Made by a program: the position numbers and the translations under genes
The notes under the pieces: generated by a model
Seen by the model: only the letters and a program-made list of their open reading frames with translations
What the model was told of the DNA's origin: nothing
Databases searched by the model: none
Shown here: positions 26,149-64,000 of the stretch, one piece after another
Layout of the letters: the number at the start of each line of letters is the position of its first letter
Numbering within the stretch: position 1 is the first letter of the stretch
IMG/VR virus record: IMGVR_UViG_3300045988_101135
Coordinates: 66,762 to 130,761 of that record
Origin: a virus
DNA: 64,000 bases
Reading direction: 5' to 3' (one strand)

Positions 26149-26149
26149 A

Positions 26150-26933: not shown

Positions 26934-26982
26934 ATACTTATACAAATATACTGTGTTAAATTTTATTATTGTATTTTTTATA

Positions 26983-27345: not shown

Positions 27346-28763
27346 GCTTTTATCCTATTATAATATTCGATAATCTTTTCTTTCCTATCTCCCGGTTTTA
27401 CCGCCATATTCTCAGCCAAGAACCTAAAATACGACACCGGTATGTCCTTGAATCTAATTCCTTCATATTTTCCAAACCACATTATTATACTGTCAAGATC
27501 GTCTTCTCTCCTACCATCTCCATTCACAGATTTAATCGAGGCTGCCCGACGAAGGATCTCGTCTTTGGTAATAATATCACCCATCCTTATATTAGACAGA
27601 AGTTGATCGCCGGCAAACATACACCAGCCCTTAGAAGGGAATTGCTCGATTGTCAGGTCTTCTATCCGACCAAAGCGCCTCATGTTGTCGCAGCAGTCAA
27701 CTATCAGCGCCTCTTTCTTGTCAGGATGGATGCGGACGCACCTGCCGAGCACCTGGTAATATGTTGAATATGAGAATGTTGGTCGTCCAAACATCACACA
27801 ATCAAGTTCGGGAAAATCAAATCCGGTAGCAAGCGTTGAATAATTAAAAACCACCTTCAACTTACCTTCTTTGAAATCGGATATGATTTGCTCTCTTTTC
27901 TTTTTGGTTGTTAGCGATGTTACGACACCGGTTATGGCTCCCATCCTGGCATTCATGAACTCTGATATTCTATTACATGATTCGATAGAATCCATGCAAA
28001 CCAAAATAGCTTTACGCTCGTTCATAAGTTGAAGAAGGCGCTTGTAGATAGAGTTGTTTAAGCCGTTTCGTACGATGCTTTCTTTAATAGATTCGTTGGT
28101 ATATTCGGCTCCGGTACTGTTTAATATCAGAGCCGATTCATCAAACGACCATCGTTCGTACTTAAGAGGGCACCAAAATCCCTGAGAAGTTAGCTCTTGT
28201 ATTTGAGTCACATGAACTATCTTCTTAAAGAAATTATGCTCGTCTTTCGTCAGCATATTAAGTTTGCTGTAGTTTCCTTCCAGCATGGAGCTGTAGGTCC
28301 GGAGGCGGCAGGGCGTGGCGGTGAAGCCCAGCACCTTCGCCTCTGGGAACCTGTTCATAAACTCCATAAATTCAGAACCTTCTTCAGGAGAATACCCGCT
28401 ATGCACCTCATCTATCAATAATGTGTCTATCCCTATATCTTTCAACCTTGCTACGTCTTTCTTTATGCTTTTAAGTGTAGCATAAGTCATAGCCGATAAC
28501 TCTTTTTTTTTACATGAAGCAGAATATATGGTAGGTTTAGAACCGAATGATACAGCCTTCGCATAATTCTGCTCCAGAATCTCTTTAGATGGCTGTAATA
28601 CAAGGATAGGTCTTTTTAATTCATGAGCTATCTTGCTAATTATCAAAGACTTCCCCGCTGCACACGGCAAGACTTCTATGCCAGGCTTCTTAGATCTTCC
28701 TGTAAGGAACTTAAGCCCGGCATCTACTGCCTCTTTTTGGTAAGGTCTAAGTTCAAAGCCCAT
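27342..28763 (-). CDS. superfamily-2 DEAD/DEAH-box helicase with C-terminal DUF3820-like tail
   Basis: LRPYQ (Q motif), PCAAGKS (Walker A), LLIDEVH (DEVH box), GFTATP (motif III), QVLGRCVR (motif VI). The C-terminal MWFGKYEGIRFKDIPVSYFRFLAEN resembles the DUF3820 motif. Confidence 0.8.
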   Translation of the reverse strand: MGFELRPYQKEAVDAGLKFLTGRSKKPGIEVLPCAAGKSLIISKIAHELKRPILVLQPSKEILEQNYAKAVSFGSKPTIYSASCKKKELSAMTYATLKSIKKDVARLKDIGIDTLLIDEVHSGYSPEEGSEFMEFMNRFPEAKVLGFTATPCRLRTYSSMLEGNYSKLNMLTKDEHNFFKKIVHVTQIQELTSQGFWCPLKYERWSFDESALILNSTGAEYTNESIKESIVRNGLNNSIYKRLLQLMNERKAILVCMDSIESCNRISEFMNARMGAITGVVTSLTTKKKREQIISDFKEGKLKVVFNYSTLATGFDFPELDCVMFGRPTFSYSTYYQVLGRCVRIHPDKKEALIVDCCDNMRRFGRIEDLTIEQFPSKGWCMFAGDQLLSNIRMGDIITKDEILRRAASIKSVNGDGRREDDLDSIIMWFGKYEGIRFKDIPVSYFRFLAENMAVKPGDRKEKIIEYYNRIKA

Positions 28764-29463: not shown

Positions 29464-29633
29464 TGGACTCCCTTTAAGTAGTTAAACCATATATCCTCCA
29501 GCTTCTCCTGAAGTTCAAATGCTTTCTTGAAATTCCCACATCTTACAGCAACGTCTCTCATGTATTCTACGTTTATAACTTCCGGATCTTGCCGGTATTT
29601 TGTTCTTAACTTTTGAACGTCCTCGTATTTCAT
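29460..29633 (-). CDS. unlisted 57-aa ORF (MKYEDVQKLRTKYRQDPEVINVEYMRDVAVRCGNFKKAFELQEKLEDIWFNYLKGVQ)
   Basis: Hand translation shows that it fills the 166-nt gap exactly. ATGA overlaps both the upstream stop (29630) and the downstream start (29463). It is below the 60-aa cutoff of the supplied track. Confidence 0.45.
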   Translation of the reverse strand: MKYEDVQKLRTKYRQDPEVINVEYMRDVAVRCGNFKKAFELQEKLEDIWFNYLKGVQ

Positions 29634-30649
29634 CGTTTTATCTTTTTAGACGGATCCCAATCCGAAGAGAAAGGGCATTCGTTTTTGTTATGTAATCCAA
29701 AGTCACAATAGTAACACAGTGCTGACGGGCAGGGTAGCTTGTTTTGCGGAACAGGCTGGCTTAGGGTGGCACGCCGCTTGCTATACCTGGCTCCTTCTGC
29801 TCCCTGGATGTATGCCTGAAATGTTTTTACACTATTATCTTCAAAATCATACATTTTAGACAAAGTGTCATTTAGCATCTCTATAGATTTTGTTTTACGT
29901 TCCTCATCCACCTTAACCTTTTGGTATTGTCTGGTCCTGGTAAAGAAATAGATGTTCATATCTGGCAGAACTCCACCATATTTTCTATAGATGTAAAACG
30001 AATATATAGGATGCTGTAAATTCGTTTCCAACTTCTTAGAATCAAAAACCTTATTACCTGATTTCCAATCTATGACATAATGGTGAACTACGTTCTTGCT
30101 TTTTATAGCCAGATGAAGGTCTACCGATCCTACTATGTACACATGAGTATGAATTACTCCATTTATGTTAACAGGCTTAGGAAGACGGTACGGCAGCACA
30201 AAATCTTCTTCGACTCCAACTATAGCGCCGTGTCTGATAAGTTTCTCGCAGGGATTAAGATCACTATCAGCTATCATAAACCTATTGCCGTCTTTTTTGA
30301 ACAGATCCACAATCCAAGCAAGAAGCTCTCCAGATTGCTTCATGGCTATCATCATATTTTCCGGTGATTGCCAAGGTATGTCTTCTTGGTAAGCATAGTA
30401 ACTTATAGCTTCCCCCAGGTCTTTGCCAGAAGGCTGTCTTCCGTTCTTGAAGAAGTATTCCAGTGTCTTATGAATAACCGTACCATAAGACGTAGCTTCT
30501 TGTTTTTCCGTAGACCTTTTGCCCTCCACGTAAGTTTTATACCATTTCATTGGACAAGTAAGAAACGTATCTATCTGGGAATAAGATATGGCAAGACGTT
30601 TCACACCATTAAACTCCTTATATAGCAAATGCGTTTCCGGGACCATCAT
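29630..30649 (-). CDS. Cas4/RecB-like PD-(D/E)XK exonuclease with C-terminal 4-Cys cluster
   Basis: N-terminal YSQIDTFLTCPMKWY...GTVIHKTLE; core VGSVDLHLAI...IDWKSGN (D...D-x-K); C-terminal CPSALCYYCDFGLHNKNEC typical of Fe-S Cas4-family nucleases. Confidence 0.6.
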   Translation of the reverse strand: MMVPETHLLYKEFNGVKRLAISYSQIDTFLTCPMKWYKTYVEGKRSTEKQEATSYGTVIHKTLEYFFKNGRQPSGKDLGEAISYYAYQEDIPWQSPENMMIAMKQSGELLAWIVDLFKKDGNRFMIADSDLNPCEKLIRHGAIVGVEEDFVLPYRLPKPVNINGVIHTHVYIVGSVDLHLAIKSKNVVHHYVIDWKSGNKVFDSKKLETNLQHPIYSFYIYRKYGGVLPDMNIYFFTRTRQYQKVKVDEERKTKSIEMLNDTLSKMYDFEDNSVKTFQAYIQGAEGARYSKRRATLSQPVPQNKLPCPSALCYYCDFGLHNKNECPFSSDWDPSKKIKR

Positions 30650-35172: not shown

Positions 35173-36306
35173 TTAATACAATGACTGTTCTTCCTTTGTC
35201 TCTTGTTCTTGATCTTGATTGTTCGTAACGTCTTCCACAGTATAGAGCTTGGGCGGCGTCGGCGGCTGGTTGGGGTTCACGAACTTCGTCCCGCCCTCCC
35301 CGTACATCCATCCATGTCCCGGCAGTATCTCTGGGTGGATTGTATTAGTAAGCTCTTCCATACTAACTTGCCTTACCTTCAGTATATGATGAAACACCAG
35401 TCCGGCTGTCCTGAATGATGTTTTGTTTTCAGTTTTAAACCTATCAAGAGTCTGATACCAATCTTTCCCAAATATCATATACTTATCCAGCCCGTACCTA
35501 CGAGGATTGTGCAAGCCTATCATTAACGTACATAACTGACCCAGCGTATCAGACTGGTAAAAATCAGAAAGACGCGGAGGCTGCTCTTGTGGGCTTTTTA
35601 TCCTTCCTTCTATTTCTCTGTTGAATTGGGATATGATGAGGAAAAATATGTTTTTATATACTAATTTAGCTTCGTTCATAACCGCCACCAAATCATCTAT
35701 AGCCGACTTAGGATCTAATCCCATTCTTTTTATCAAAGCAATATGATCGACTTTAAATATTATAAGACGTTTGTCTTTATGTTTGGTAGCTATATGATAC
35801 ACAGCCGCCTCAAACTCTTTTACCGTACACGGAGCATCGATGTATATTATATTATTTCTGATTTCACCTTGAAGGATTTCAAACATCCTCATCTCTTCTA
35901 CTGTATTAGAATCTTGCCTTCTTAATATTTCAGGAGCCCGCTTTTTCATATCCTGGCTCATTCTACGAAGAAGAAGATCTTGAGGATTCATTTCGAACTC
36001 GCAATTAACAAGAAAATAATCTTCTGCTTGCGGGTTGATCATCGGATTCATCACATTTTCCAATATCTTTTGGGCCACATACGATTTACCTACAGATGGC
36101 CGGGCTCCTATGGCAATAGCATGCTGAGGGAAAATACCTCCAAGCAAAGCCTCATCAATATAATCGTATCCGGTTTTAGCGGGGATAAGCTCTCCCCGCC
36201 TGTATTTCAAGATATTCTCATACGCCTCTTCCATAACTTGTTTAGAGGTCTTGAATATCCTTCTTATATCTATCCTATTTGCTATCTCCTCTTGCATTTT
36301 TGTCAC
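35173..36306 (-). CDS. DnaB-family replicative helicase (C-terminal RecA-like domain)
   Basis: GARPSVGKS Walker A, FEMNPQDLLLRRMS, IFKVDHIALI, ISQFNREIEGR match the DnaB C-terminal domain motifs. The ATG at 36297 is the likely start (GTG at 36306). Confidence 0.7.
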   Translation of the reverse strand: MTKMQEEIANRIDIRRIFKTSKQVMEEAYENILKYRRGELIPAKTGYDYIDEALLGGIFPQHAIAIGARPSVGKSYVAQKILENVMNPMINPQAEDYFLVNCEFEMNPQDLLLRRMSQDMKKRAPEILRRQDSNTVEEMRMFEILQGEIRNNIIYIDAPCTVKEFEAAVYHIATKHKDKRLIIFKVDHIALIKRMGLDPKSAIDDLVAVMNEAKLVYKNIFFLIISQFNREIEGRIKSPQEQPPRLSDFYQSDTLGQLCTLMIGLHNPRRYGLDKYMIFGKDWYQTLDRFKTENKTSFRTAGLVFHHILKVRQVSMEELTNTIHPEILPGHGWMYGEGGTKFVNPNQPPTPPKLYTVEDVTNNQDQEQETKEEQSLY

Positions 36307-37414: not shown

Positions 37415-37751
37415 TTATATAACCCGGATGATCTTCACACGCCTCTTTGTATTTGATAAGAAACTTAAGAAATGAATCATAAGACCCCCATCCGTTTTCT
37501 GGTTCGTATCTCAAAAGACTCTTTCTCTTGGAGATCATAATATATATACCTTTTGTGAGTATCTTCACCATCTCCTTAGTATCTATTTCCCTGCCCAATT
37601 CTTCCGGTCTCCAAACATAATCGTATAGTGTTTCTTTGTTTTCTGATACGAATATTTTTTGTGCCATCTTGTTCATGTTGTGGGTGATGTTTGCAACCCA
37701 TTTACGATCCTCTTCTTTCTTCTTGCTCTTAATATAAACGTCCAGGCTCAT
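37398..37751 (-). CDS. hypothetical protein (117 aa)
   Basis: ORF in the minus array. Confidence 0.45.
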   Translation of the reverse strand: MSLDVYIKSKKKEEDRKWVANITHNMNKMAQKIFVSENKETLYDYVWRPEELGREIDTKEMVKILTKGIYIMISKRKSLLRYEPENGWGSYDSFLKFLIKYKEACEDHPGYIIEASR

Positions 37752-38742
37752 AATATTTCTCTTTTACTTTGTTATTAATTATCAAATCTGCCACATCATC
37801 TCCGTCCCCTACATTCTCAACACTCTGAAGATAGTCCGATACTTTTATCCTTGACTTCATCATCATCCCATCTATCTTTTTACTCCATGTGTCAAATGCT
37901 TGTCCTTTGTCCGGAAAAGCTACAGTCTTTCTATCTTTTAAAACATCTATCACTTCCGGTCTTAAGTTCTGCAACCCACCGGTAGCTACAAACAACTCAT
38001 CTGGTTTATTCACGGCGCATATAATAGCCGTCTTTTCTGACTCCACCAAATTAACTACCTTATCTGGATACTGGCTTAGAAGATGTTCTCCAAACAGGCA
38101 TTGTCTAAACAAGAAGTCTCTTGCATGCAACGAGTGATAAAACATGACATGAGGTCGCTCATTGTCACCGTCTTTTTCCTTCACTCTTTTTACATCAATC
38201 TCATTCCCCTGGCTGTCGGTCTTTATATAAAAATCCATAATCTTGCCGGTTCTGCATACAAAGTCCTTATCTATCTGCCAGAATATACAACACCCTTTCC
38301 ATCCCCATAAGTCCATTGTTCCAACATGATACCTTCTAAATACGTCAGATACCCTTTCTTTTCCCCATAGAGACGATAAAAATCTAAATACGGTGTTTCT
38401 ATCGTCTGGAACTACAGTCCTCTCAAACTCGCTAAAAGGTATGTAATTTACAACGTCAGGATTTACAGGAGGACGATAAGCTCTTATGCACTTATTTCCC
38501 GAAATCCAAAGATCTTTGTCACCTACATCCTTGCCGGTAGGTCGTTTATCATAACCGCAAGTTCGTTCATGATCGCATCTTCCAAACTCATTGCCAACGA
38601 CCTGACCGGTCGCCACATCAATATAAGGGGTAAGGCACCGGCTTTTCCCGCAAGCCGGGCAGGTTAGCTTCAGTCGGCTCCTGCCCGGCCTGCGGTCAAG
38701 TTGAAACCGAGGTACGTTTTCGTATTTTCTAAAATCAAGCAT
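37729..38742 (-). CDS. primase-like protein (N-terminal zinc ribbon + Toprim-like segment)
   Basis: CPACGKSRC...C.HERTC near the N-terminus; LVESEKTAI ... VAFPDKGQA resembles Toprim E / DxD elements. It lies three genes from the DnaB-like helicase. Confidence 0.4.
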   Translation of the reverse strand: MLDFRKYENVPRFQLDRRPGRSRLKLTCPACGKSRCLTPYIDVATGQVVGNEFGRCDHERTCGYDKRPTGKDVGDKDLWISGNKCIRAYRPPVNPDVVNYIPFSEFERTVVPDDRNTVFRFLSSLWGKERVSDVFRRYHVGTMDLWGWKGCCIFWQIDKDFVCRTGKIMDFYIKTDSQGNEIDVKRVKEKDGDNERPHVMFYHSLHARDFLFRQCLFGEHLLSQYPDKVVNLVESEKTAIICAVNKPDELFVATGGLQNLRPEVIDVLKDRKTVAFPDKGQAFDTWSKKIDGMMMKSRIKVSDYLQSVENVGDGDDVADLIINNKVKEKYYEPGRLY

Positions 38743-54452: not shown

Positions 54453-55262
54453 TTAAATACTTAACTCTTCAATGGTCAAGCCTTTTTCTTTTGCCCACTT
54501 TAGCATCGCGCATAATTCTGTTTCTGACTTATATTTCGGATCACGCCACGCCCATCCGAATTTATCCAGGACATGATGATATAATTCGTCGGCCTTTGCC
54601 GTGTAAATGTCTTTGAATAAATGCTCCGAACCTTCCGGTATAAGCATCTCTGTTGTTGCAAAATCGGAATACGATAAACATCCGTAAGCATATTCTGTTA
54701 TTTCACTCCATGCTTCTCCGGCTTTAAATCCAAATTCTTTTACAAAAGCCAAAGTTAGATACATATTTAATAATATTGTTACATCATATCCGGAATCCGA
54801 CTTTCTTTCTATTATTTCCTTTTCAAATTCCTTTAAATCTTCAGGTCCTAAAAAGATGTATCCTGATACCGACCGGTAATTAGTCTCCGCATACTTCTTG
54901 CATTTATCATCATTGACAATCTTACTAATGTTAGATAACATCTTTTGCCTCCATTCATCACAAAACTCTACCTCTACGTTCATCCAATCAGTACCATAAT
55001 TATATTCTTTCGGATATCCGACCGATGTTACCTTTATACTATTCACGCCATATCCGTAAAGGCGTTCACTTACCTCATTCGCCCATTCCTGTACAAAAGG
55101 AATAAACTTATTGTAATAAGAATCAAAATCAAAATCCGATTCCTCCTCATATTCTGGCATCTCTTCATAATCCTGTTCAAAGAAATGACGAGGATCTGCT
55201 ATTGTTTCGTAGAAACTTACGTTAATGAAACAAAACTCGTTGGTTGTCGTTTTTAATATCAT
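54453..55262 (-). CDS. acidic hypothetical protein (269 aa)
   Basis: N-terminal EQDYEEMPEYEEESDFDFD acidic patch. Confidence 0.55.
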   Translation of the reverse strand: MILKTTTNEFCFINVSFYETIADPRHFFEQDYEEMPEYEEESDFDFDSYYNKFIPFVQEWANEVSERLYGYGVNSIKVTSVGYPKEYNYGTDWMNVEVEFCDEWRQKMLSNISKIVNDDKCKKYAETNYRSVSGYIFLGPEDLKEFEKEIIERKSDSGYDVTILLNMYLTLAFVKEFGFKAGEAWSEITEYAYGCLSYSDFATTEMLIPEGSEHLFKDIYTAKADELYHHVLDKFGWAWRDPKYKSETELCAMLKWAKEKGLTIEELSI

Positions 55263-55513
55263 AACTTTTTGTATTTACGTACATTTTTCTTGCCATAGAA
55301 TCTACACATGGCACGAATCTGACTATAAAATACTTTTGTCCTCCTGGCCTCAAAGTATTTAAACATTTCTTCATTCTTTGTTTCCCAAACGTAATCCGTT
55401 TGGGAACTCATGCGATCTTTCTCCTTGCGTGAATAATGGTAATATGATACCACAACACGTTTCATACCATTCTTTACAGGTACGATATTTACGTCTATAC
55501 TATTCTCTGTCAT
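55259..55513 (-). CDS. hypothetical protein (84 aa)
   Basis: ORF in the minus array. Confidence 0.4.
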   Translation of the reverse strand: MTENSIDVNIVPVKNGMKRVVVSYYHYSRKEKDRMSSQTDYVWETKNEEMFKYFEARRTKVFYSQIRAMCRFYGKKNVRKYKKL

Positions 55514-55632
55514 ATTATTATTGTTTTATGCATTATACAAATACAAAGAGCGCATACCTTCACAGGCCGGCGCTCCTTTCAATAAAAATGAAAAAACTAA
55601 TATTACATAAACATATTGTTTTCTACTCTTTA

Positions 55633-55866
55633 TTACAATACTTTTGTTCCGCAATTATTATATCTTCCGTACTCTTTTTTCGTATCATTCAAGATTTCAA
55701 AAACCATCTTCTTGTGATCTTCGTTTGGTAACCTATCCTTAACAGCCGATATTACGCCCGCTATAGACGTAAAGCCTGAATCTGTTATTGAACACAGCAA
55801 CACGCCTCTGTCGGCTCCGGTGCTTATTGCTGACGCCTTTATAATATCATTCTTATATATTCTCAT
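55633..55866 (-). CDS. hypothetical protein (77 aa)
   Basis: ORF in the minus array. Confidence 0.4.
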   Translation of the reverse strand: MRIYKNDIIKASAISTGADRGVLLCSITDSGFTSIAGVISAVKDRLPNEDHKKMVFEILNDTKKEYGRYNNCGTKVL

Positions 55867-55879
55867 AACTTTTTTGTTT

Positions 55880-55975
55880 TATTGTTTGTGAGATGCCCAG
55901 AATCGAACCAGGACCGGCACATACGCACCGGCACGCCGCGTCATCCCCTCTATGATGCAGAAATAGGCATGCCTA
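55880..55975 (-). tRNA. tRNA-like element 1 (canonical T-arm; ~95 nt; atypical body)
   Basis: The minus strand reads ...cctgg-TTCGATT-ctggg-catctcac. This is a T-stem/loop with G53, T54, T55, C56 and C61, followed by a 7-nt acceptor 3' strand. A complementary 5' strand (gtgagga) lies about 95 nt upstream. An internal 7-8 bp hairpin (ccggtgc-gtat-gtgccgg) could be a long variable arm. D and anticodon arms could not be folded by eye. Confidence 0.45.
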
Positions 55976-56041
55976 TCCTCACGAACCGACATGCCAAAAC
56001 CCAAAACTTAATTTGATGAATAAAATAGATTAACAAAAATA

Positions 56042-56356
56042 CTATTCTAATTCTTTTATAATATCTTTCACAATATTCAGCCTTACCTCCTTCGTTTCTG
56101 GACTAAGACAACCAAACCACCCATAAAACGTTCTTGTTTCCTCTGGTTCTGTGGCCATACTTATCTTCTCTTCCAATTCCGGGAAATATATTCTCACCAT
56201 TTCGTCTGAACGAAACTCATAGATATTTTTATGTGTTTTGAAATACATAAACACTACATTTCTTAACGCAACACATATGTATTCCCCATCCTCTAACCTA
56301 TCAATCATCTCATATACCTTTTTCCATATGAATAATCGCTCTTCTTTTGCAAACAT
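56042..56356 (-). CDS. hypothetical protein (104 aa)
   Basis: ORF in the minus array. Confidence 0.45.
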   Translation of the reverse strand: MFAKEERLFIWKKVYEMIDRLEDGEYICVALRNVVFMYFKTHKNIYEFRSDEMVRIYFPELEEKISMATEPEETRTFYGWFGCLSPETKEVRLNIVKDIIKELE

Positions 56357-56378
56357 ATCTTTCTTTATTTTTGTGGTA

Positions 56379-56708
56379 TTATTTGACTGTACGCAGACTT
56401 TTCCATGTACACAATACTATGTGTCCAAGTATTTTCTTTGCTGCTTCTTTCTTTATCGCGCAATATCTCCCTGTACGATACGGATTCTTTTGATCTGATC
56501 CATCCTCAACTTCGATAATAAAACAACCTCCGTCATCTATTATCTTTTTGCAATTGTCACATATTTCTCCCGTGCATATATGATGCGGCGCCTGCCCTTT
56601 GATGTTATTCCCTAATAAAGCAATCCCCATCTCTTCACCGCATACTATGCATAGTTCTATGGATGGATTCAACCCATGCTCTGGATGCAATACAATACCG
56701 TCTTTCAT
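56379..56708 (-). CDS. Cys/His-rich protein (109 aa)
   Basis: CIVCG...HHICTGEICDNC pattern. Confidence 0.45.
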   Translation of the reverse strand: MKDGIVLHPEHGLNPSIELCIVCGEEMGIALLGNNIKGQAPHHICTGEICDNCKKIIDDGGCFIIEVEDGSDQKNPYRTGRYCAIKKEAAKKILGHIVLCTWKSLRTVK

Positions 56709-57109
56709 TTTCTATCCTCCTTTATTAATTCTATTATAAACTTTTTATCTTGTTCCCACAATGGCAGCCCTTCTTTTACTGTGTATGCCACTGTTTCCCT
56801 CTCTCCTATTAATCGCACGGCAATCTCTCTTGCTTTCAAGTCATCCTCCTCATGCGATTTGTTTATTAAATCATAGGCACATGATTCCACCTTTTGCCTT
56901 TCGATTATTATCGAACCCATTAACTCGCTTATATGCGATCCTAAAAACGATAAGACATTAATAGCTTTCCCAATATCATTTGAAATAGCACTTGCTAAAT
57001 ACATCTTATCCATATACTCCGGCAAAGCCTCGTATGCCGTTTCTATGTTTTTATACTGATTTTCGTTTACCTCCCTTTTAATCAGTTCTTCAAATTCTTC
57101 TTTTAACAT
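56705..57109 (-). CDS. hypothetical protein (start trimmed to Met 57109; 134 aa)
   Basis: The track ORF (to 57256) would run through the tRNA-like element; the internal ATG (MLKEEFEEL) avoids this. Confidence 0.5.
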   Translation of the reverse strand: MLKEEFEELIKREVNENQYKNIETAYEALPEYMDKMYLASAISNDIGKAINVLSFLGSHISELMGSIIIERQKVESCAYDLINKSHEEDDLKAREIAVRLIGERETVAYTVKEGLPLWEQDKKFIIELIKEDRK

Positions 57110-57132
57110 GTTCTTCCCTATTTTAATGTTGT

Positions 57133-57199
57133 GTGAGATCGCCGGAATCGAACCGACTTGCTGCACCATGAATCCCATAAAGCAAATGCTCCGATCTTC
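57133..57199 (-). tRNA. tRNA-like element 2 (T-arm gtcgg-TTCGATT-ccggc + acceptor 3' gatctca)
   Basis: Same T-arm core (ccggaatcgaaccg on the plus strand) as elements 1 and 3. The candidate 5' acceptor strand gaagatc pairs 5 of 7. The 67-nt span is short for a canonical tRNA. Confidence 0.4.
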
Positions 57200-57256
57200 G
57201 CAGATGGGAGCATTCTGTCTAAAGCATAAGAAAATTAATGAAGAAATTTTTCTCAC

Positions 57257-57337
57257 TTACGCCATAGCATCTAAAATAGCTATCAGCACTATTTCTATGA
57301 CAAACATAATAGAAAATATCTTAAATGCCTTTTTCAT
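57257..57337 (-). CDS. unlisted 26-aa hydrophobic peptide MKKAFKIFSIMFVIEIVLIAILDAMA
   Basis: ATG preceded at 9 nt by ggagg (strong SD); the peptide is a single predicted TM helix; below the track cutoff. Confidence 0.3.
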   Translation of the reverse strand: MKKAFKIFSIMFVIEIVLIAILDAMA

Positions 57338-57444
57338 ATCGCTATCTCCTCCTTTTTATTTTTTTTAGTTCCACAATAAACTGTTCCGGCTCTGCTCCGA
57401 CCTACGTTCCACCTACAACCGCAGGCCTTAGCCCAAGGCGCCGC

Positions 57445-57714
57445 CTACTCCCCCTCTATGGCAGCCTGTTCGTACCTACAAATCCAATCTCCATCTATAC
57501 AACTATCACTACGCGATAATAAACATTTATCCTTATAACAATCATAAAAAATACACCTATCACAACTGTAATCCTTAACGTCTACACAGCTAACTACCTT
57601 AGCATATACTATTCCATCACTGCCTTCTATTCCTTTTACCCCGAAAATAGAACCTTCTACCTCCTTACTCAAATCTAAGTCAGGCGCAAAGTCATATACG
57701 TTCATACCATCCAT
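57445..57714 (-). CDS. Cys-rich small protein (89 aa)
   Basis: CVDVKDYSCDRCIFYDCYKDKC...C...C. Confidence 0.4.
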   Translation of the reverse strand: MDGMNVYDFAPDLDLSKEVEGSIFGVKGIEGSDGIVYAKVVSCVDVKDYSCDRCIFYDCYKDKCLLSRSDSCIDGDWICRYEQAAIEGE

Positions 57715-57803
57715 ATTTTAATTGTTAAACATCCCGCTTAAAAAAAAATACTCACATAATGCAGTCCTCAACCCTTAATCTGTTGGAAGGAACCTATATA
57801 ATG

Positions 57804-57889
57804 CTGTTTTAAACCCTTATCATATTGAATTTTGTGGAAATGATCTACAGAACACTGTTTTAAAACGCTTATCTATTGAATTTTGTTGG
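57804..57889. repeat. imperfect direct repeat (2 x ~34 nt): ctgttttaaa(a)c(g)cttatc(a/t)tattgaattttgt(t)gg
   Basis: Two copies at 57804-57837 and 57855-57889. Confidence 0.5.
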
Positions 57890-58000
57890 TAGGGAGTGCC
57901 CTCCCTCTCCCCCTCTCCAACCCCGGCTAATCCTCCGGCTTTCCGCATAGAACCTGCGCTCTCGGCCTCACTACCGGCATACGGAGAGCGCTACAAGCTT
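57889..58000. other. GC/CT-rich structured island (possible small RNA)
   Basis: ccctccctctccccctctcc tract followed by nested hairpins: agggag-tgcc-ctccct, ccgg-ctaatcct-ccgg, and gcgctctc-20nt-gagagcgc. Confidence 0.3.
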
Positions 58001-58420
58001 ATACTCTGGCATGAAGTATGGGGTATTTAGAGATAATATCATTCCATAGAGAGAATAGAGAGCCTTCAGCCCACGCCCTACCGCCTGCTCCTCCTATCAA
58101 GATAGATATTTAAGCCTATAATCAAAGCCAATAAAGAAAAGCAAAAGACCATTACAATATTATACTGATCCGGTCCGTACTCCAACATAGAGCGAATACC
58201 AACCGACAGAAAATACAAGTCAGCTACTAATAAAAACCACCACATAAAATAAAAAAAAAATACAATAAGTATGTCCGAAAATACGGGGATTATAAAACCT
58301 AACTAATTGATAATCAAGCATACATAATTTTTAAGAAAAGTACAATAAGCCTAATTTTCAATCCATAGAGACGAAAAAGGCGGAATCCGGAACCCTATTT
58401 TGGGCCAGAAAACCGCATAA

Positions 58421-58514
58421 AGTTTCGTTTTAGACCAATTTTAACGACATGATATAGACAAAATACCGGCATTATATCCAAACTATCCTATTTTAGTTTC
58501 GTTTTAGACCAATA
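58421..58514. repeat. 19-nt direct repeat agtttcgttttagaccaat x2, spaced 75 nt
   Basis: Exact copies at 58421-58439 and 58496-58514. Confidence 0.5.
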
Positions 58515-58618
58515 TAGCTTACATCCGCCGTTCACTCTCAGAATATCCTACCCGTAAATAGAAAGAGTAGGATACAAAAATAGGGCTGCTCCGATATTCG
58601 AAACAACCCTACTCCTGT

Positions 58619-58825
58619 TTAAATACTGTTTATGTTTTCCTTCACGTAAGTTCGTGATGTATGGACTTTACGTTTGCATTTGTCCTTTCCCGTATCGGCA
58701 TGATACGCTTCTTTGAGATCACGATACAACATAAATTCCCGATACGCTCTTTTCCGCTTTTCTTTAGCTTCTTTCCTGGACAGACCGCGGACGTCTACCA
58801 TATGAGATTTAAATTTCCTTTCCAT
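58619..58825 (-). CDS. basic small protein (68 aa)
   Basis: Isolated ORF in the non-coding hub; Lys/Arg-rich. Confidence 0.35.
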   Translation of the reverse strand: MERKFKSHMVDVRGLSRKEAKEKRKRAYREFMLYRDLKEAYHADTGKDKCKRKVHTSRTYVKENINSI

Positions 58826-59043
58826 TTTCTTTATGCTTTAATTATGATTAACTCCAGCGGTTAAGAGCTTCGATATAGAAACCCTCCGCCTCTTTATACT
58901 CATTTTCACTGAGTGTTTCCACCGTCTCGATATAGTTACGCAATGTTATTTTTACGCAGATGTTTTTAGATTTATTGAACGCTTCAGTTAAAGCGTTGAT
59001 CATTTCTTTCTTTTCCATGTTATTATATTGTTTATAATTTAGA

Positions 59044-59110
59044 GGTTGCTCCGGAATCGAACCGAACGCGCATTCCTATCCTGTACGAATTTTATGCTAC
59101 AACCAACAGC
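59044..59110 (-). tRNA. tRNA-like element 3 (T-arm ttcgg-TTCGATT-ccgga; D-arm-like gctg-ttggttg-tagc)
   Basis: Shares ccggaatcgaaccga with element 2. The ggttgt / gcaacc acceptor pairing is possible, but the spacing is non-canonical. Confidence 0.35.
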
Positions 59111-59577
59111 CCGTAATTAGTACGTAGTTCTTGTGTACAGGCCCGTACTATGTTGTTATTATATTTTCCGTCTGCTACACAACTTAGCCACAAATAAAGG
59201 CGATTGTGTCCTTGCGTTTTGATACAACATGTTCCTACATGTTAGGCTACATGTTTATACCCTGTAATTTAATCTACAGCCTTGTCCTATTTTACGTGCA
59301 GGCAAGTAAGGCACGTTTCGGTCTAGAGATAAACCGCGTACAACGGTATGTTTTCCAAACTGTACTAACATACCTAACATAACTACATTTATCCAATGTA
59401 GTACATGCAGTAATACCAGCCCTTTAATTGCCAACGGCAAGGGCAAAGGTATATCTATCTCCAATATGTAAAATAACTCTCTGTTTTGTCAGCTTCAGTC
59501 TAAAGCATACGCGGGACATGCACCCACTGACAACGGCGTACAAGCGCGTTTAAAGGTACGCGCCCAACCTTGTTTTT

Positions 59578-60117
59578 TCACTGTTGATTGCTTTCGTGTG
59601 CTAAATACTCAGATACACACTTTGCAACGGTACGAAGCGAATAAGATTTGATCTTAACGGCCACATAAGTAGATTTATACTCGTCCGTCTCTTTAACGAT
59701 CCATTTTGCACTACTTTTCGTTTCCAACGTTTCCGCGGTCGCAAATCCGAAAGGCTTGTACTCTTCGCCATAAACTACATTATCAGCGCACCAATCAGCC
59801 GTTTTAGCCTCAACGCCTTTCTCTTTGTCTGCATTGGTATCCTTATACACTTTAGAGTATAAAGCAAATTTAACAAATGTATCGTCAACTTTCGGTAACA
59901 TTTGGCTACACACAGCTACCAGGCGTTTTTTATCCTTGGCGAGGGCTGCAACCTTTACGGCGTATTCTGCCGGTATTTCTAAGGCCTTGCAAATAGACTT
60001 AAGATCAGCTCCATTAGCAAATAAAGCGTTGTATAACTTTACGGCACCTACCAAATTTGCAGCATTTTCTTTGATAACAGCATTCTGTAGTTTGTTTACA
60101 TTTTTTTTAGTAATCAT
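59578..60117 (-). CDS. Ala/Lys-rich hypothetical protein (179 aa)
   Basis: Clean ORF inside the otherwise non-coding hub; the direction matches the DHH/PNKP operon. Confidence 0.55.
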   Translation of the reverse strand: MITKKNVNKLQNAVIKENAANLVGAVKLYNALFANGADLKSICKALEIPAEYAVKVAALAKDKKRLVAVCSQMLPKVDDTFVKFALYSKVYKDTNADKEKGVEAKTADWCADNVVYGEEYKPFGFATAETLETKSSAKWIVKETDEYKSTYVAVKIKSYSLRTVAKCVSEYLAHESNQQ

Positions 60118-60344
60118 AACATTATGTATTTATTTGTTAAACAAGTGATATTCAATTCAATAGCCCACAACGCAAGCTATTAACAGATACAGATATAGCG
60201 TTATCCAACGGATACACTATATAGGTTCATCATGTCGGCATGTGTTATCGCTTTAACACATTGCAAATATACTACTTTTATTGTTACTACAAATATATAT
60301 ACTATATTTTTTTTGTTAACTTGTATTAATTTCGATTCTATTAT

Positions 60345-60496
60345 CTGATTATCAGCAAATTATAAAACACGCAAGAGCAGTATTATACGCGTACATTAAT
60401 ATGTAGGATATATGCTTATTTAAGTGGCTTATAATCAATATGTTACAATAACACATTGATTATCAATAATTTAAATAAGTGGTTGATAATCAGAGA
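60345..60496. repeat. cluster of TGAT(T/A)ATCA palindromic motifs plus a 20-nt direct repeat taagtgg(c)tt(g)ataatca
   Basis: ctgattatcag (60345), cttataatcaat (60428), attgattatcaat (60455), ttgataatcag (60483); iteron-like. Confidence 0.45.
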
Positions 60497-60595
60497 GTTT
60501 TTAAGTTTGAGGTAAAAACGCGTTTTCGGTTTTCCAGCGAAGGGGGTGTGGGGGAGAAAACGCGTTTCGGGGGCGGGAGGTTCGTGATAGGTACC

Positions 60596-60720
60596 CCCTC
60601 TCTCCCATCACATAAACATCTTTTACCCTCTCTCCCATCACATAAACCTCTTTCTCACATATCTCCCACATTACATAAACATCTTTTACCCTCTCTCCCA
60701 TCACATACCCACCTCACACA
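60596..60720. repeat. tandem ~30-bp polypyrimidine repeat ccctctctcccatcacataaacatctttta (about 4 degenerate copies)
   Basis: Periodic repeat visible directly in the sequence; generates the spurious plus-strand ORF 60479..60736 with a repeated LPSLPSHK. Confidence 0.6.
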
Positions 60721-60724
60721 CAAC

Positions 60725-60759
60725 AAAAAAAAATAGGATTGATAGAAACCAATCCTATT
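60725..60759 (-). terminator. rho-independent terminator (10-bp stem aataggattg/caatcctatt, then T9 on the minus strand)
   Basis: Perfect hairpin 20 nt after the DHH gene stop; the A9 on the plus strand at 60725-60733 reads as a U-run on the minus strand. Confidence 0.65.
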
Positions 60760-60779
60760 TAAAACACGACCTTATTAAT

Positions 60780-61766
60780 TTATTGAATTGAAGTAAGTTT
60801 ATGGTTTTCAAGGAAGTCCTTAAACTGGTCACTTGATACGTCTATAACGAATCCAGCAGCACCAGCATGTCCTCCACCACCGAATCTCTTACTTACCTCA
60901 CAGCAATCCGCGCTGTCTTCCACGCATTCATAAAGAGAGAACCTAACCTTACCACCTGGCATGATACAAAATGGCATAAGGGCTTTAATTTTTCTACCGT
61001 CTAACCAGTCTCGTGTAAGAGAATCAAATACTTTAGAACTAAATTCCGTAGTATTCATCGCCACGACCTTAACCTCGTCTACGTAAGCTTCGAACGAATA
61101 CGCACTTACCTCTTGTTCGTTTTTACCAGCCATGTAGTTAATTATAGCACGTCCTTCTTTAGCGAGATCATAAAAAATAAGATCAATTTCATTGTCCTTC
61201 ATATCTTCTTTAAAGTGATCATACAAATACGACAATGCTATTAATACATTGAGTCTTATTTTTGATCTCAAGGCATACTGGATAGCTACTACCGTATCCC
61301 ATCCTAATTCAGAATCTTTATTCCACACATCGTAGTCTGACAGGCACCGGACGATCGCCGGCACCTTCCCCATCAGCAGGTCCGAGGCCAGAGCGCACGC
61401 ACCGACACCGACTCTCCTCAACCCTGGAACTACGAACCCCCATGTCTTACTATCTTCGATAATCCCCTTATGATGATCTATCCACATCAGGCTCTTTCCT
61501 TCATCAAGCCATTTCTTGAAAACCGTTTTAGAATCGGCTCCGAAAGACACGTCAAGAACATAAACAACATCTAAGTCACGCACTTGGTCAACAACTTTCT
61601 TAACATCATCTTCATACGAATACGGGATATAAACAACATCCTTGTTTTTACTGTGTTCATACATAGTTGCGATGGCTGCCGACACAACGCCATCTAAATC
61701 CGATTTATGATAAACTATCGCTGTTTTCTTTACTTTCATGATACAAACTTGTATATTTGATACCAC
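60780..61766 (-). CDS. DHH-DHHA1 family phosphoesterase (NrnA/RecJ-like)
   Basis: YHKSDLDGVVSA (motif I), IDHHKG (DHH motif), C-terminal GGGHAGAAGF (DHHA1 GGGH motif). The true start is probably MKVKK at 61739. Confidence 0.7.
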   Translation of the reverse strand: MVSNIQVCIMKVKKTAIVYHKSDLDGVVSAAIATMYEHSKNKDVVYIPYSYEDDVKKVVDQVRDLDVVYVLDVSFGADSKTVFKKWLDEGKSLMWIDHHKGIIEDSKTWGFVVPGLRRVGVGACALASDLLMGKVPAIVRCLSDYDVWNKDSELGWDTVVAIQYALRSKIRLNVLIALSYLYDHFKEDMKDNEIDLIFYDLAKEGRAIINYMAGKNEQEVSAYSFEAYVDEVKVVAMNTTEFSSKVFDSLTRDWLDGRKIKALMPFCIMPGGKVRFSLYECVEDSADCCEVSKRFGGGGHAGAAGFVIDVSSDQFKDFLENHKLTSIQ

Positions 61767-62646
61767 CGTCTTTTAATGTTTCTATTTTTATAACATCACT
61801 ATATAAATTGAAATTCTGATCTTTATCAATCCTTATATTCAGCACATCATCTACGGTTGCAGTTTTTCCATCATCGGTTTCAATCTTATAAAAATCTTTT
61901 AAAGTGATTTTTATATTAAGACCAACACCATATGGATTTTCAAGGATATATATATGATCGTTGTTGAGAATAACTATTCCTTCACTTGTATGTTCTTTGG
62001 ACAATACATATTCTAAATCAAGATCTTTATCCAAAAATGTAGTAATATCCATATAGTTAATACCGGAATTATAGGCACATACCTTATCCGAATCAGAGAA
62101 CTGCCCTGGCAGACCACTGGCGTCCCCGACCATCAACGAACATCCCTTAAGTTGACTGAAGTTCATACCGCGCATTACCGTGTCTTTACACTTCATAAGA
62201 ATATCATCAATCATGCCCGTATTAGGCTTCCTCATCGGATTTTGTTCGTCATTTGAATAACACAACCTTTTTTCATATAGGACGCCTCTTATACCTCTCT
62301 TTACCGCCAGATCATGTACGGACCTCAGTACGTATTCTATCTTAGCTTCAATATCAGCTCCAGAAACAAACCCAGCTTCTACTCCTCCTTGATTGCTTAC
62401 GATAGCAAATACCTTAACACCGTTCTCCTGCATGAGGTCAAGAGCCTTATTCACCACATCCATCTTAATCCTCATATCTGTCAAGTCTGTAGCGAACGTA
62501 TTCCCAGAAGCGGTTTCTATAAGCGTTCCATCAAAATCAAACAATAATATTCGTTTGGATTTTATATCAATATCTTGTACCATATCATTCTCCTTTCTCA
62601 AACTTACTTTTCTTAATCTCTCTCGGAACCAGGCAGAACACACCAT
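61705..62646 (-). CDS. PNKP-type HAD-family polynucleotide 3'-phosphatase with unknown C-terminal domain
   Basis: FDFDGTLIETASGNTFAT (DxDGT motif I plus the PNKP-specific TxxSG), SNQGGV, RKPNTGM, MVGDASG...FSDSDKVCAYNSGINY parallel the T4 Pnk / mammalian PNKP phosphatase domain. No kinase P-loop is present. Confidence 0.65.
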   Translation of the reverse strand: MVCSAWFRERLRKVSLRKENDMVQDIDIKSKRILLFDFDGTLIETASGNTFATDLTDMRIKMDVVNKALDLMQENGVKVFAIVSNQGGVEAGFVSGADIEAKIEYVLRSVHDLAVKRGIRGVLYEKRLCYSNDEQNPMRKPNTGMIDDILMKCKDTVMRGMNFSQLKGCSLMVGDASGLPGQFSDSDKVCAYNSGINYMDITTFLDKDLDLEYVLSKEHTSEGIVILNNDHIYILENPYGVGLNIKITLKDFYKIETDDGKTATVDDVLNIRIDKDQNFNLYSDVIKIETLKDGGIKYTSLYHESKENSDSLS

Positions 62647-63007
62647 CTTCGTCCTTAACCTTCACAATATCATAAACCGCATACTGATTATCACCGATAT
62701 CCCAACCTAACGAAGACAGTACATCACGGAGGTAAATACGTCTATATTTCTCACCTTGTTTATTTAATAAAAACGATCTCTCGTCTTCTACCTTAGAAGG
62801 AGCTATATACAAATTAGAATCCAACACCCCTTTAAACTCAGCTCCTTCTTCCATACCAATAATAACCGCATCTTCGATACCCATCCATTTCAGATTGTCC
62901 ACCGATATGGTCATAATCCGATCTTTGCTAATAGAAAGCTTTCTGATTTTAGCTTCTTTTGTCTTAGAACCTACATAGGTTTTACTGCTTAAAAAGTTTA
63001 TCTTCAT
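62585..63007 (-). CDS. hypothetical protein (140 aa)
   Basis: ORF in the minus array. Confidence 0.45.
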   Translation of the reverse strand: MKINFLSSKTYVGSKTKEAKIRKLSISKDRIMTISVDNLKWMGIEDAVIIGMEEGAEFKGVLDSNLYIAPSKVEDERSFLLNKQGEKYRRIYLRDVLSSLGWDIGDNQYAVYDIVKVKDEDGVFCLVPREIKKSKFEKGE

Positions 63008-63086
63008 GATATAATGTTTTTAAATTGTATCGCAAATATACGCAATAATATAAACAATACAATTTAAAAACAATTAAAATATGATA

Positions 63087-64000
63087 TTATAATACAGGTA
63101 ATTTTTTGAACTGCTCTGGAGCCACCTCGGATATGATTCCACGGAAAGCAAGACGCGAACCGAAGTACGAACTCGCGCTCAACGCGTTGCGAGACGCATA
63201 CGCATACGCCACGCCACTACTCGTATCCGAGCCGCTATAGGAGCGCGCCAAAACAATGGAGTTGCTCGATGTCTGACTATAGTAATCTGAATAATGCATG
63301 GAATCGTTACCGCCAACATTTGTCGGCACCACATCGAAAAACGGACCGTTTTCCGCTGCGATATTCGTTATCCAGCCATTGGAAGTTCCGGCGTTCACAT
63401 TGCGAGTCGATCCGTCTGGGTCGGTGATTTTCCAAACTCGGTTGTTGATTTCTACACCTTCAACCCATTCATAGATACCACCAAAAACCCCTTCCAAACC
63501 TAAGCCGCAAACGTACTTTGAACTTTCGTTTTTGGTATCCGCACCGCCGGTTGCGTTGCTGCTTCCCGTTGTTGTAGCCGGATTATTATTTGCGCCACCT
63601 AATCCTAATACAGATTGAATATTACGTGTTTTGTACTTAGCATACAACATCATAGCAATCACGCAATGTTGTTGAAAATCTATCATCTGAAACCCGGTAC
63701 CACGCGCTTTCGCATAACCTTCAAAATCGTTGAATGATTTTGAAGTTGTAGGACTAACACCACTCCAGCTATATAATCCATTCAAAGATACATATCCTTT
63801 ATATGCTCCAACAAGAGATTCCGGGACATGGATGTAAGTGCCGTCAATATCATGATCAGCAAAATGATAAAGAAATCTATTATCATCCACCTTATACCAT
63901 TTATACCAAAATTCTAAGAAAACGACCATCACATCACCTTCTGGTCCGGTAAGATTAGCCTGACTACCATCAAGATACAAATTGCTGTTGTCTTCCTTCA
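63087..64000 (-). CDS. Gly/Ser/Thr/Asn-rich fibre-like protein, N-terminus beyond the window edge
   Basis: The frame stays open to the window end. Composition (GGANNNPATTTGSSNATGGADT; the C-terminus has many S/T/N/G) resembles receptor-binding or tail-fibre distal domains. Confidence 0.5.
   Translation of the reverse strand, partial: KEDNSNLYLDGSQANLTGPEGDVMVVFLEFWYKWYKVDDNRFLYHFADHDIDGTYIHVPESLVGAYKGYVSLNGLYSWSGVSPTTSKSFNDFEGYAKARGTGFQMIDFQQHCVIAMMLYAKYKTRNIQSVLGLGGANNNPATTTGSSNATGGADTKNESSKYVCGLGLEGVFGGIYEWVEGVEINNRVWKITDPDGSTRNVNAGTSNGWITNIAAENGPFFDVVPTNVGGNDSMHYSDYYSQTSSNSIVLARSYSGSDTSSGVAYAYASRNALSASSYFGSRLAFRGIISEVAPEQFKKLPVL

Follow-up and report, generated by a model that had tools for sequence, protein, structure and literature searches.

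Introduction

Mammalian PNKP, Tpp1 of yeast and ZDP of plants are DNA 3'-phosphatases. In phage T4, Pnkp (PseT) acts together with RNA ligase 1 in the repair of tRNA against the PrrC anticodon nuclease, and T4 Pnkp also dephosphorylates 3'-deoxynucleoside monophosphates (3'-dNMPs). Among enzymes with a DHH domain, NrnA, NrnB and RecJ degrade short RNA and single-stranded DNA (PMC9757072, PMC12709177), and DHH proteins can also be specific for immune messengers (PMC10600005, PMC8284326); NrN of Bacteroides fragilis, for example, degrades SAM-AMP, the messenger of type III CRISPR, but neither cA2-6 nor pApA (PMC10600005). Here we analyze a locus in which a PNKP-type phosphatase gene without a kinase domain is followed by a gene for a DHH-DHHA1 protein. 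It occupies positions 60780..62646 of a 64,000-nucleotide (nt) stretch of viral DNA, hereafter the window, which corresponds to positions 66,762 to 130,761 of the IMG/VR record IMGVR_UViG_3300045988_101135. Our preferred but tentative reading, to which we give a probability of roughly 0.45, takes the unit for an accessory cassette that processes nucleic-acid ends and clears fragments in the service of replication and nucleotide supply.

The window derives from a relative of the gut phage csAssE-Sib, and few viruses of the human gut are as abundant as the crAss-like phages. As both superfamilies are known and the csAssE-Sib GenBank record already annotates a ‘polynucleotide kinase, 3 phosphatase’ and a ‘phosphodiesterase (NrnA)’, the pair belongs to known kinds of enzyme and as such adds little, while no study of these phage phosphatase and DHH proteins was found in the literature. 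What the locus does offer is a phage-specific DHH-DHHA1 family that recurs in or beside the crAss-like replication module and carries a distinctive substrate motif and, as the more valuable by-product, a covariation-supported structured RNA with a tRNA-like end. Phage-host biology would gain from an answer to whether the two enzymes recycle nucleotides, repair nucleic-acid ends or disarm the immunity of Bacteroidales.

The Phage and the Three-Gene Unit

Region 59000..62575 is 86% identical at the nucleotide level to csAssE-Sib (OR575929.1; 151,256 bp, human gut), and the window corresponds approximately to positions 92.7k-151.2k plus 1-5.4k of that record. The csAssE-Sib annotation contains crAss-type virion terms (e.g., muzzle and ring proteins), and minus-strand genes run from 22.8 kb to 64 kb of the window. 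The phosphatase/DHH unit is thus carried by a crAss-like (‘epsilon’-type) gut phage of ~150 kb. Positions 60780..62646 hold two overlapping minus-strand open reading frames (ORFs), the phosphatase first and the DHH-DHHA1 protein second, with an overlap of 35 nt between the genes. Their likely starts are ATG 62583 (292 amino acids, aa) and ATG 61739 (319 aa), which are preferred because the resulting lengths fit most homologues and the annotation of csAssE-Sib; an alternative in-frame phosphatase ATG lies upstream at 62646 and would give 313 aa. The features of the unit are as follows, AF2 denoting AlphaFold2 models.

62585..63007, minus strand: up140, first gene of the unit, encoding a 140-aa protein (ORF list)
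61705..62583, minus strand: PNKP-type HAD-IIIA 3'-phosphatase, 292 aa, without kinase domain (stop codon 61705-61707 included)
62026..62553, minus strand: HAD phosphatase domain, residues ~11-186 (alignment columns and mouse PNKP match)
61708..62025, minus strand: C-terminal beta-rich extension of the phosphatase, residues ~187-292 (AF2 strands)
60780..61739, minus strand: stand-alone DHH-DHHA1 phosphoesterase or exonuclease, 319 aa (phrog_4771, motifs, AF2, Foldseek)
60731..60760, minus strand: intrinsic terminator closing the unit, with a 13-bp stem, a 4-nt loop and a T7 run (terminator scan)

By this layout the unit is a terminated minus-strand operon of three genes (up140, phosphatase, DHH), in which the two enzyme genes are translationally coupled or overlapping and share one common terminator. 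The stop of up140 meets the phosphatase start as TGA-T-ATG, the TGA ending 1 nt before the ATG, and a candidate TAnnTTTG-like motif (TATATTTG) can be read ~25 nt upstream of the up140 ATG. A first-pass annotation of this DNA, made from its letters without database searches, had placed both enzyme genes in one terminated minus-strand unit. The ORFs and the terminator at 60760..60731(-) bear this out; the gene extents it gave hold for the ORFs and change in that the likely starts are 62583 and 61739 and that the unit has a third gene. Among the 80 close relatives compared, the phosphatase-DHH pair is kept in all 80 and the 140-aa gene in 77. The up140 protein is 62% identical to the product of the gene at the same position in csAssE-Sib and has no match in Pfam, PHROG, NCBIfam or PADLOC.

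The PNKP-Type Phosphatase

By sequence comparison, membership of the phosphatase in the PNK3P/HAD-IIIA family is established. Pfam PNK3P (PF08645) matches it with an E-value of 5.9e-21 and 75.3 bits against a cut-off of 22, and the TIGR01662 (HAD-SF-IIIA) cut-off is also passed (51.1 vs 44.6 bits). The cut-off of TIGR01664, the ‘DNA 3'-phosphatase’ equivalog, is missed (71.2 vs 107.65 bits), and for this reason equivalence to a DNA 3'-phosphatase is not established; in TIGR01663, the bifunctional kinase-phosphatase, only the phosphatase part is aligned (47.3 vs 502.8 bits). A phmmer search of the PDB returned the mammalian PNKP phosphatase domain as the sole match (2e-6). A profile built from 29 homologues matches PNKP over the whole domain at 2.9e-17, and an uncharacterised HAD-like protein, then GmhB and HisB, at only 1e-8 to 1e-5. 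Among the HAD-IIIA branches the phosphatase thus lies nearer to PNKP than to GmhB or HisB-N. In sequence it also resembles eukaryotic PNKP much more closely than T4 Pnkp, the latter giving no sequence match.

The catalytic motifs are conserved in the family, namely motif I (D16-x-D18-G-T20, DFDGT), motif II (S63-N64-Q65, SNQGG), motif III (R118-K119-P-N) and motif IV (G153-D154-A-S-G plus F162-S-D164-S-D166), and they align residue by residue with mouse PNKP, including its GDAAG...FSxxD signature. The phage protein shares the HAD-IIIA fold and the PNKP-type signatures (DxDGT, TNQ/SNQ, RKP, GDAxG...FSxxD...A.N.G...F) with the mammalian PNKP phosphatase domain, Tpp1 and ZDP, and it is kinase-less, as is Tpp1: the sequence contains no P-loop GxxxxGK[ST] and no kinase domain, and its C-terminal domain is all-beta in the AF2 model. 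The PNKP phosphatase signature without a kinase domain described in the first-pass annotation is therefore confirmed, with DFDGT, SNQGG, RKPN and GDASG...FSDSD all present and PNK3P far above its cut-off. The protein differs from PNKP, Tpp1 and ZDP in being phage-encoded, in scoring below TIGR01664 and in carrying a clade-specific beta-rich C-terminal domain of ~95 aa.

In the AF2 model this C-terminal part has strands at residues 188-279, and the last 10 residues are disordered. Its ~95 aa (187-282) have no Pfam or PHROG match even at an E-value of 10. The domain is confined to this phage clade, in which its alleles are mosaic, and the stand-alone homologues consist of a phosphatase of 165-190 aa only. 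Such stand-alone PNKP-type phosphatases form 822 clusters at 50% identity, mostly on phage-sized contigs; no match to the window phosphatase was found in PHROGs v4.

The DHH-DHHA1 Protein

Membership of the second protein in the DHH-DHHA1 superfamily is likewise established. The Pfam hidden Markov models (HMMs) fall just short of their cut-offs (DHH, PF01368, 25.4 vs 28.1 bits; DHHA1, PF02272, 24.2 vs 25.9 bits), so that the DHH-DHHA1 call of the first-pass annotation lacks formal Pfam support and stands on motifs, phrog_4771 and fold. The match to phrog_4771 ‘DHH phosphoesterase’ (6.4e-27) and the fold match outweigh the Pfam shortfall, and the protein is therefore a divergent member of the superfamily. 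Across 25 diverse homologues, residues H11, D14, D16, D63, D88-H89-H90, D137 and GGGH288-291 show no variation, and the catalytic motifs are kept in nearly all of ~100 full-length homologues. The AF2 model (predicted local distance difference test, pLDDT, 93) has a DHH domain at residues 1-175, a long helix at 182-214 and a DHHA1 domain at 215-319, and a Foldseek search with this model returns the cores of NrnA, TmPDE, DhhP, GdpP and RecJ at E ~1e-12 with a probability of 1.0.

The protein is built like the stand-alone nanoRNases and phosphodiesterases NrnA, NrnB, Rv2837c/CnpB, TmPDE and DhhP/Pde2, which have two domains (DHH and DHHA1) and ~300-320 aa. It shares with them all DHH motifs and GGGH-x-x-AAG (profile matches 2e-7 to 5e-6), and differs in its low identity (12-18%), in having R-x-S-x-Y in place of R-x-R-x-R and in a motif IV, YDVW, of the family's own. 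The proposed substrate-recognition motif of NrnA, R-x-R-x-R, consists of R262, R264 and R266 in Bacillus subtilis (PMC9757072). At this position the phage protein reads V-R266-F-S268-L-Y270; Y270 aligns in the HMM alignments to a conserved Arg of TmPDE and DhhP, and the Tyr is nearly universal in the ~100 phage homologues. The only NCBIfam matches are to N-terminal regions of RecJ: TIGR00644 (RecJ) scores 19.9 vs 396.9 bits through its N-terminal motifs only, and the AF2 model of the 319-aa protein has no extra domain. Because the protein scores below the cut-off or lacks the defining motif concerned, equivalence to NrnA or RecJ is not established.

The best structural matches are viral. In BFVD they are uncharacterised DHH phosphohydrolases (E 1e-18 to 1e-14, TM-scores 0.65-0.72) of the jumbo phages PaBG, AR9 (‘NrnB’), PhiEaH1 and RP12 and of the giant eukaryotic viruses Marseillevirus, Klosneuvirus and Pithovirus. 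Since function assays of these viral proteins (phrog_4771, jumbo phages, giant viruses) were not found, membership in this group gives the phage protein a name and no mechanism.

Genomic Context of the Two Enzymes

The DHH gene recurs in a replication context. It lies in or at the edge of a module of DnaB, PD-(D/E)XK nuclease and SNF2-like helicase genes, after the helicase, in four other crAss-like lineages. It directly abuts a gene for a PF18909 deoxynucleoside triphosphate (dNTP) diphosphohydrolase in three lineages (L082, L083, L086), is found 1.4 kb downstream of the PF18909 gene in L093 and directly after the helicase in L087, and closes an ERF/YqaJ recombination operon in a smaller phage. 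PF18909 (DUF5664) enzymes convert dNTPs to dNMPs (PMC12884076). A locus search with the DHH alignment yielded near-identical relatives only, and the diverged loci came from single homologue look-ups; DHH homologues of 28-46% identity are found on phage-sized contigs. The corresponding module of the window comprises the following genes, all assigned by Pfam.

25251..25808: PF18909 dATP/dGTP diphosphohydrolase
27342..28763: SNF2-like helicase
29630..30649: PD-(D/E)XK nuclease
35173..36306: DnaB
37729..38742: primase-like protein

In the window, the slot between helicase and PF18909 gene (25251..28763) is filled by the unrelated ORFs 26150..26917 and 26983..27345, and the DHH gene lies 35 kb away with the phosphatase. 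Judged against L082, L083 and L086, the DHH gene of this phage seems to have been moved or re-acquired.

The phosphatase is also met among genes of DNA and nucleotide metabolism. Within the Crassvirales, it follows DNA ligase, dNMP kinase and ThyX genes in Whopevirus animalis, two genes downstream of the ligase; a PNK3P gene lies between PolA and Thy1 genes in L210, and in L208 and L209 among small early genes. In csAssE-Sib the pair is placed just downstream of a block that encodes single-stranded DNA-binding protein, sliding clamp, RuvC-type resolvase, thymidylate synthase and dUTPase. The pair is adjacent in the diverged L085 lineage (DHH 36% and phosphatase 47% identical), and in L086 a 176-aa PNK3P protein is encoded 3 kb downstream of the DHH gene. 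A housekeeping nucleotide-metabolism setting, which the first-pass annotation had regarded as contrary to a repair or anti-defence module, is hence found in part, as PF18909, ThyX and dNMP kinase neighbors in other lineages.

This context also bears on a reading as DNA repair or recombination proper, in which the phosphatase would clean 3'-phosphate nicks in replicating phage DNA for polymerase and ligase and the DHH protein would be a minimal RecJ-like 5'-3' single-stranded DNA exonuclease that resects flaps or ends. The phosphatase has its nearest characterised relatives (PNKP, Tpp1, ZDP) among DNA-repair enzymes, the Joint Genome Institute labels homologues ‘DNA 3'-phosphatase’, the DHH neighbors are helicases and a PD-(D/E)XK nuclease, the Whopevirus PNK3P gene is close to a DNA ligase gene, and RecJ N-terminal regions are the only NCBIfam matches of the DHH protein. 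However, the latter lacks the RecJ OB-fold and C-terminal domains and scores far below the RecJ cut-off, it has the size and domain layout of the stand-alone NrnA/NrnB class, the enzymes of which act on short oligonucleotides, and the pair is dispensable in natural variants. As a reading of its own we consider this rather improbable; its nick-repair version, in which a 3'-hydroxyl would be restored for the phage polymerase or ligase and the DHH enzyme would trim in the manner of RecJ, is a sub-case of the end-processing and clearance reading, and the data do not separate the two.

Proposed Function

In the end-processing and clearance reading, the phosphatase would remove 3'-phosphates from DNA or RNA ends, short oligonucleotides or 3'-nucleotides and leave 3'-hydroxyl groups. 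Damage, endonucleases of host or phage, and cleavage by RNases or toxins would be the sources of such 3'-phosphate ends, which would block polymerases, ligases and 3' exonucleases. The DHH enzyme would then degrade short single-stranded (deoxy)oligonucleotides to 5'-mononucleotides, which could feed the nucleotide enzymes of the phage, while inhibitory nanoRNA or nanoDNA would be cleared as well. The two steps are predicted to be coupled, in that a 3'-phosphate would stall the DHH enzyme until the phosphatase takes it off. The phosphatase has an intact catalytic set, and the DHH protein an intact two-metal DHH site together with the GGGH substrate motif. Among such nucleotide enzymes, the window encodes the dATP/dGTP diphosphohydrolase; annotations of thymidylate synthase and dUTPase exist only for csAssE-Sib, beyond the end of the window. 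Clearance is favored over a defence-specific role because the replication and nucleotide context recurs and because the DHH fold occurs in large viruses; judging from the structural models, the jumbo-phage and giant-virus relatives fit general nucleic-acid turnover better than the countering of a bacterial immune signal.

Several observations weigh against this reading. Whether the substrate is DNA, RNA or free nucleotides is not readable from the sequences, and as R-x-S-x-Y replaces R-x-R-x-R, the substrate of the DHH protein, or its grip on the substrate terminus, may differ from that of classical nanoRNases. The pair in this phage lies outside the replication module, beside a non-coding hub. 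Pairing is not universal either, as four DHH-bearing lineages have no PNK3P gene within +/-8 kb, and many of the stand-alone PNK3P genes have small early genes as neighbors and, in one case, a Tad2-like gene nearby. Moreover, the motif IV Asp is lost in 18 of 116 phosphatase clusters (~15%), csAssE-Sib included, where GDASG has become GNASG, GSASG, GYASG or GGASG. Sixteen of these clusters form one allele group that also has RKPNTGM changed to MKPNPGM and NQGG to NQC[DE]. The Asp-less alleles are proteins P0086-P0108 and L001:3537-4409 (csAssE-Sib), and the window's own phosphatase is intact; the csAssE-Sib allele (GNASG, MKPN) is predicted to be inactive. Between csAssE-Sib and the window the phosphatase is 63% identical and the DHH protein 93%, and the alleles suggest a phosphatase that is catalytically impaired or re-purposed beside a 93%-conserved DHH gene.

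To this are added metagenomic variants in which in-frame deletions remove parts of both enzymes. These deletions, in variants of 60780..62583, take away the C-terminal domain of the phosphatase and/or the N-terminal catalytic part of the DHH protein, and several of them join at short shared residues, the locus being a deletion hot spot. Seven apparent phosphatase-DHH ‘fusion’ proteins (P0127, P0129, P0139, P0062, P0141, P0167 and P0201) are independent in-frame deletions of this kind and were rejected as fusions. From the natural deletion variants it follows that the pair is dispensable in some populations; dispensability is typical of accessory, counter-defence and auxiliary-metabolism genes alike.

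Mosaic alleles, deletions and lost catalytic residues are often seen in accessory arms-race genes, and they are among the points for a counter-defence role. Here the DHH protein would hydrolyze an immune messenger (a cyclic oligoadenylate, a cyclic dinucleotide or SAM-AMP, the signal used by type III-B CRISPR in Bacteroides) and the phosphatase would strip a terminal phosphate from the signal or from a breakdown product. Cellular DHH-DHHA1 enzymes set a precedent, the MAD nuclease of Sulfolobus acting on cA4 (PMC8284326) and B. fragilis NrN on SAM-AMP (PMC10600005); both belong to the same superfamily as the phage protein, and NrN comes from the probable host phylum. GdpP, Pde2 and Rv2837c, which degrade c-di-AMP and pApA, have structures among the Foldseek matches. 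The R-x-S-x-Y motif could point to a substrate outside the canonical range, a Tad2-like sponge gene is present in the phage, and in L209 the PNK3P gene is three genes away from a Tad2-like gene.

Against a counter-defence role, several crAss-like lineages keep the DHH gene in a fixed slot within or next to the replication module, relatives by fold occur in giant eukaryotic viruses, which never meet these systems, and the need for a 3'-phosphatase is left unexplained. To the known viral signal nucleases Acb1, Apyc1 and AcrIII-1, which have unrelated folds, no similarity was detected. The family profile has no match in the B. fragilis NrN gene, a weak comparison because the NrN sequence is a synthetic gene damaged by optical character recognition. 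NrN is, in addition, shorter and, so far as the damaged text is legible, has GGHDLE as its first motif and GGGI as its glycine-rich C-terminal motif where the phage protein has DLDG and GGGH; the phage protein is not membrane-associated. The anti-defence module proposed in the first-pass annotation found no backing in PADLOC, which has no match for the operon proteins, or in Pfam, which gives only DHH and DHHA1. Altogether, a counter-defence role is the least probable of the readings considered here.

The Structured RNA and Possible RNA End Healing

The first-pass annotation had placed the unit next to a hub of three tRNA-like elements. ARAGORN reports 0 tRNA and 0 tmRNA genes in the whole 64-kb window, while the control on csAssE-Sib recovers four annotated tRNAs, and Rfam at E<=1 over 55000..64000 gives nothing tRNA-like, only a chance miRNA match. 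The tRNA cluster of csAssE-Sib lies upstream of the operon, beyond the end of the window. Instead of three elements there is one tRNA-like module, which forms part of a larger structured RNA.

~59036..59316, minus strand: structured RNA of ~280 nt with an H-type pseudoknot and a tRNA-like 3' module (covariation)

This RNA lies 1.5 kb downstream of the operon, between the gene for a 179-aa protein (59578..60117) and a small ORF (58848..59018). It is conserved in 92 sequence variants of the clade and keeps 75% identity even in L085, where identity of the flanking enzymes is down to 36-47%. Of the 73 pairs in the RNAalifold prediction, 19 show compensatory changes. A structure built by hand comprises 13 helices with 65 pairs, and 98% of its cells are paired in 20 sequences; both partners have changed in 23 of the 65 pairs, compared with 6.8 +/- 1.7 in shuffles (0 of 500) and with 1-7 in slid controls. 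The tRNA-like module consists of an acceptor-like stem GGTTGT/GCAACC (GGCTATA/TATAGCC in L085), a single arm and a T-arm (TTCGG-TTCGATT-CCGGA) with the canonical loop TTCGATT, and has no encoded CCA. The RNA was found only in this phage clade and the diverged L085 lineage and has no Rfam family; it looks like an undescribed RNA family. In csAssE-Sib a hypothetical coding sequence of 95 aa is annotated across it. A tmRNA was considered and rejected: the 5' strand of the acceptor stem precedes the T-arm by only ~45 nt instead of forming the 5' end of the RNA, ARAGORN reports none, and an apparent frame of 27 codons crosses covarying helices. The ‘T-loop’ element at ~58610 was likewise rejected, as it is an 8-bp hairpin with a T-run, i.e., a terminator.

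The RNA is one reason to consider 3'-end healing of RNA without ligation, a reading in which the phosphatase would treat the ends of nuclease-cut tRNA or of the phage tRNA-like RNA. The cuts would come from host anticodon or acceptor-end nucleases that leave 3'-phosphate ends or ends derived from cyclic phosphates, a phage nucleotidyltransferase of the CCA-adding or poly(A) polymerase type would rebuild the 3' end, and the DHH protein would trim or clear fragments. T4 Pnkp is a precedent for the same phosphatase fold in phage tRNA repair. Furthermore, the csAssE-Sib genome has genes for six tRNAs, Lys and Tyr among them, for a Ro60-like protein and for an enzyme of the CCA-adding or poly(A) polymerase type; the structured RNA, with its tRNA-like 3' module and no encoded CCA, lies close downstream; and the order phosphatase, DHH, 179-aa gene and RNA is preserved in L085. 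This shared order is weak evidence, however, because L085 is collinear with the clade over the whole region. Between operon and RNA lie a terminator, 650 nt of repeat-rich spacer and a further gene. Elsewhere both enzymes occur in DNA or nucleotide contexts, and Pfam did not find the nucleotidyltransferase in the window ORFs tried.

In contrast to T4 Pnkp with its RNA ligase 1, the phage unit has no kinase domain, and no RNA ligase partner was found. Neither a 5'-kinase nor an RNA ligase was found in the operon, in 27 further window ORFs (Pfam), in the compared neighborhoods or in the annotated 151-kb csAssE-Sib genome. An RNA ligase (Rnl1, Rnl2 or RtcB) is probably absent from the element, many small window ORFs being outside the scan. 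The kinase or RNA ligase that the first-pass annotation had suggested looking for in the flanks is thus missing from the annotation of the complete csAssE-Sib genome, and the RNA-repair module it had proposed lacks support on this point and in the want of tRNA genes adjoining the operon. We therefore regard RNA healing as unlikely.

About as improbable as the DNA-repair reading is that the pair is not housekeeping at all but an RNA-centered or counter-defence module conserved in the clade, which could take two forms. In the first (a), phosphatase, DHH protein, 179-aa protein, structured RNA and nucleotidyltransferase would together perform a ligase-independent healing or maturation of tRNA-type 3' ends that host nucleases have attacked. 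In the second (b), the DHH protein would be a viral off-switch phosphodiesterase for a Bacteroidales messenger (SAM-AMP or cyclic oligoadenylate) and, if so, the first DHH-type anti-CRISPR or anti-CBASS enzyme. The end-processing and clearance reading remains the one that we prefer.

Neighboring Genes and Non-Coding Repeats

The 179-aa protein encoded at 59578..60117(-), between operon and structured RNA, is more conserved than the enzymes, with 89% identity in csAssE-Sib and 66% in L085, where the DHH protein has 36%. It has no family match save a weak one to PADLOC PDC-M04B (E 0.012). After the operon terminator follows a repeat-rich spacer of ~650 nt (60130..60730), with two tandem copies of ~61-63 nt at 60599..60722. 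A palindromic motif, TTGATAATCA/TGATTATCA, occurs at 58300, 60346, 60449 and 60476, partly as inverted repeats of 27-31 nt. These spacer repeats and palindromes may be operator, promoter or origin elements.

Further downstream, 57760..58110(-) is a conserved GC-rich stretch in a genome of 37% GC, followed by tandem repeats of ~50 nt (TTCCAACAAAATT[CA]A...GTTTTAAAACAG...), the copy number of which differs among relatives. An RNA at 57760..58110 (including 57900..58100) is not supported, as only 2 of 76 predicted pairs covary; the repeats there may be iterons or a promoter array. An exact direct repeat of 19 nt, AGTTTCGTTTTAGACCAAT, occurs at 58421..58439 and 58495..58513, 74 nt apart, in non-coding DNA.

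Beyond the other end of the unit, on the early-gene strand, a 297-aa ORF (63087..63980(-)) resembles large tail proteins over their C-terminal ~250 residues (phrog_14959, 1.4e-41; phrog_5302 ‘tail protein’, 4.4e-31). It is present in about half of the close relatives, and csAssE-Sib has a plus-strand ‘glycosyl hydrolase family 5 protein’ in its place. Far from the unit, 12018..12749(+) encodes a 243-aa protein with a WDGH domain (PF25311, 4.5e-36) and a C-terminal Tad2-like domain (PF11195, 5.6e-11), the latter in agreement with the Tad2-like protein that the first-pass annotation had recognized at 12018.

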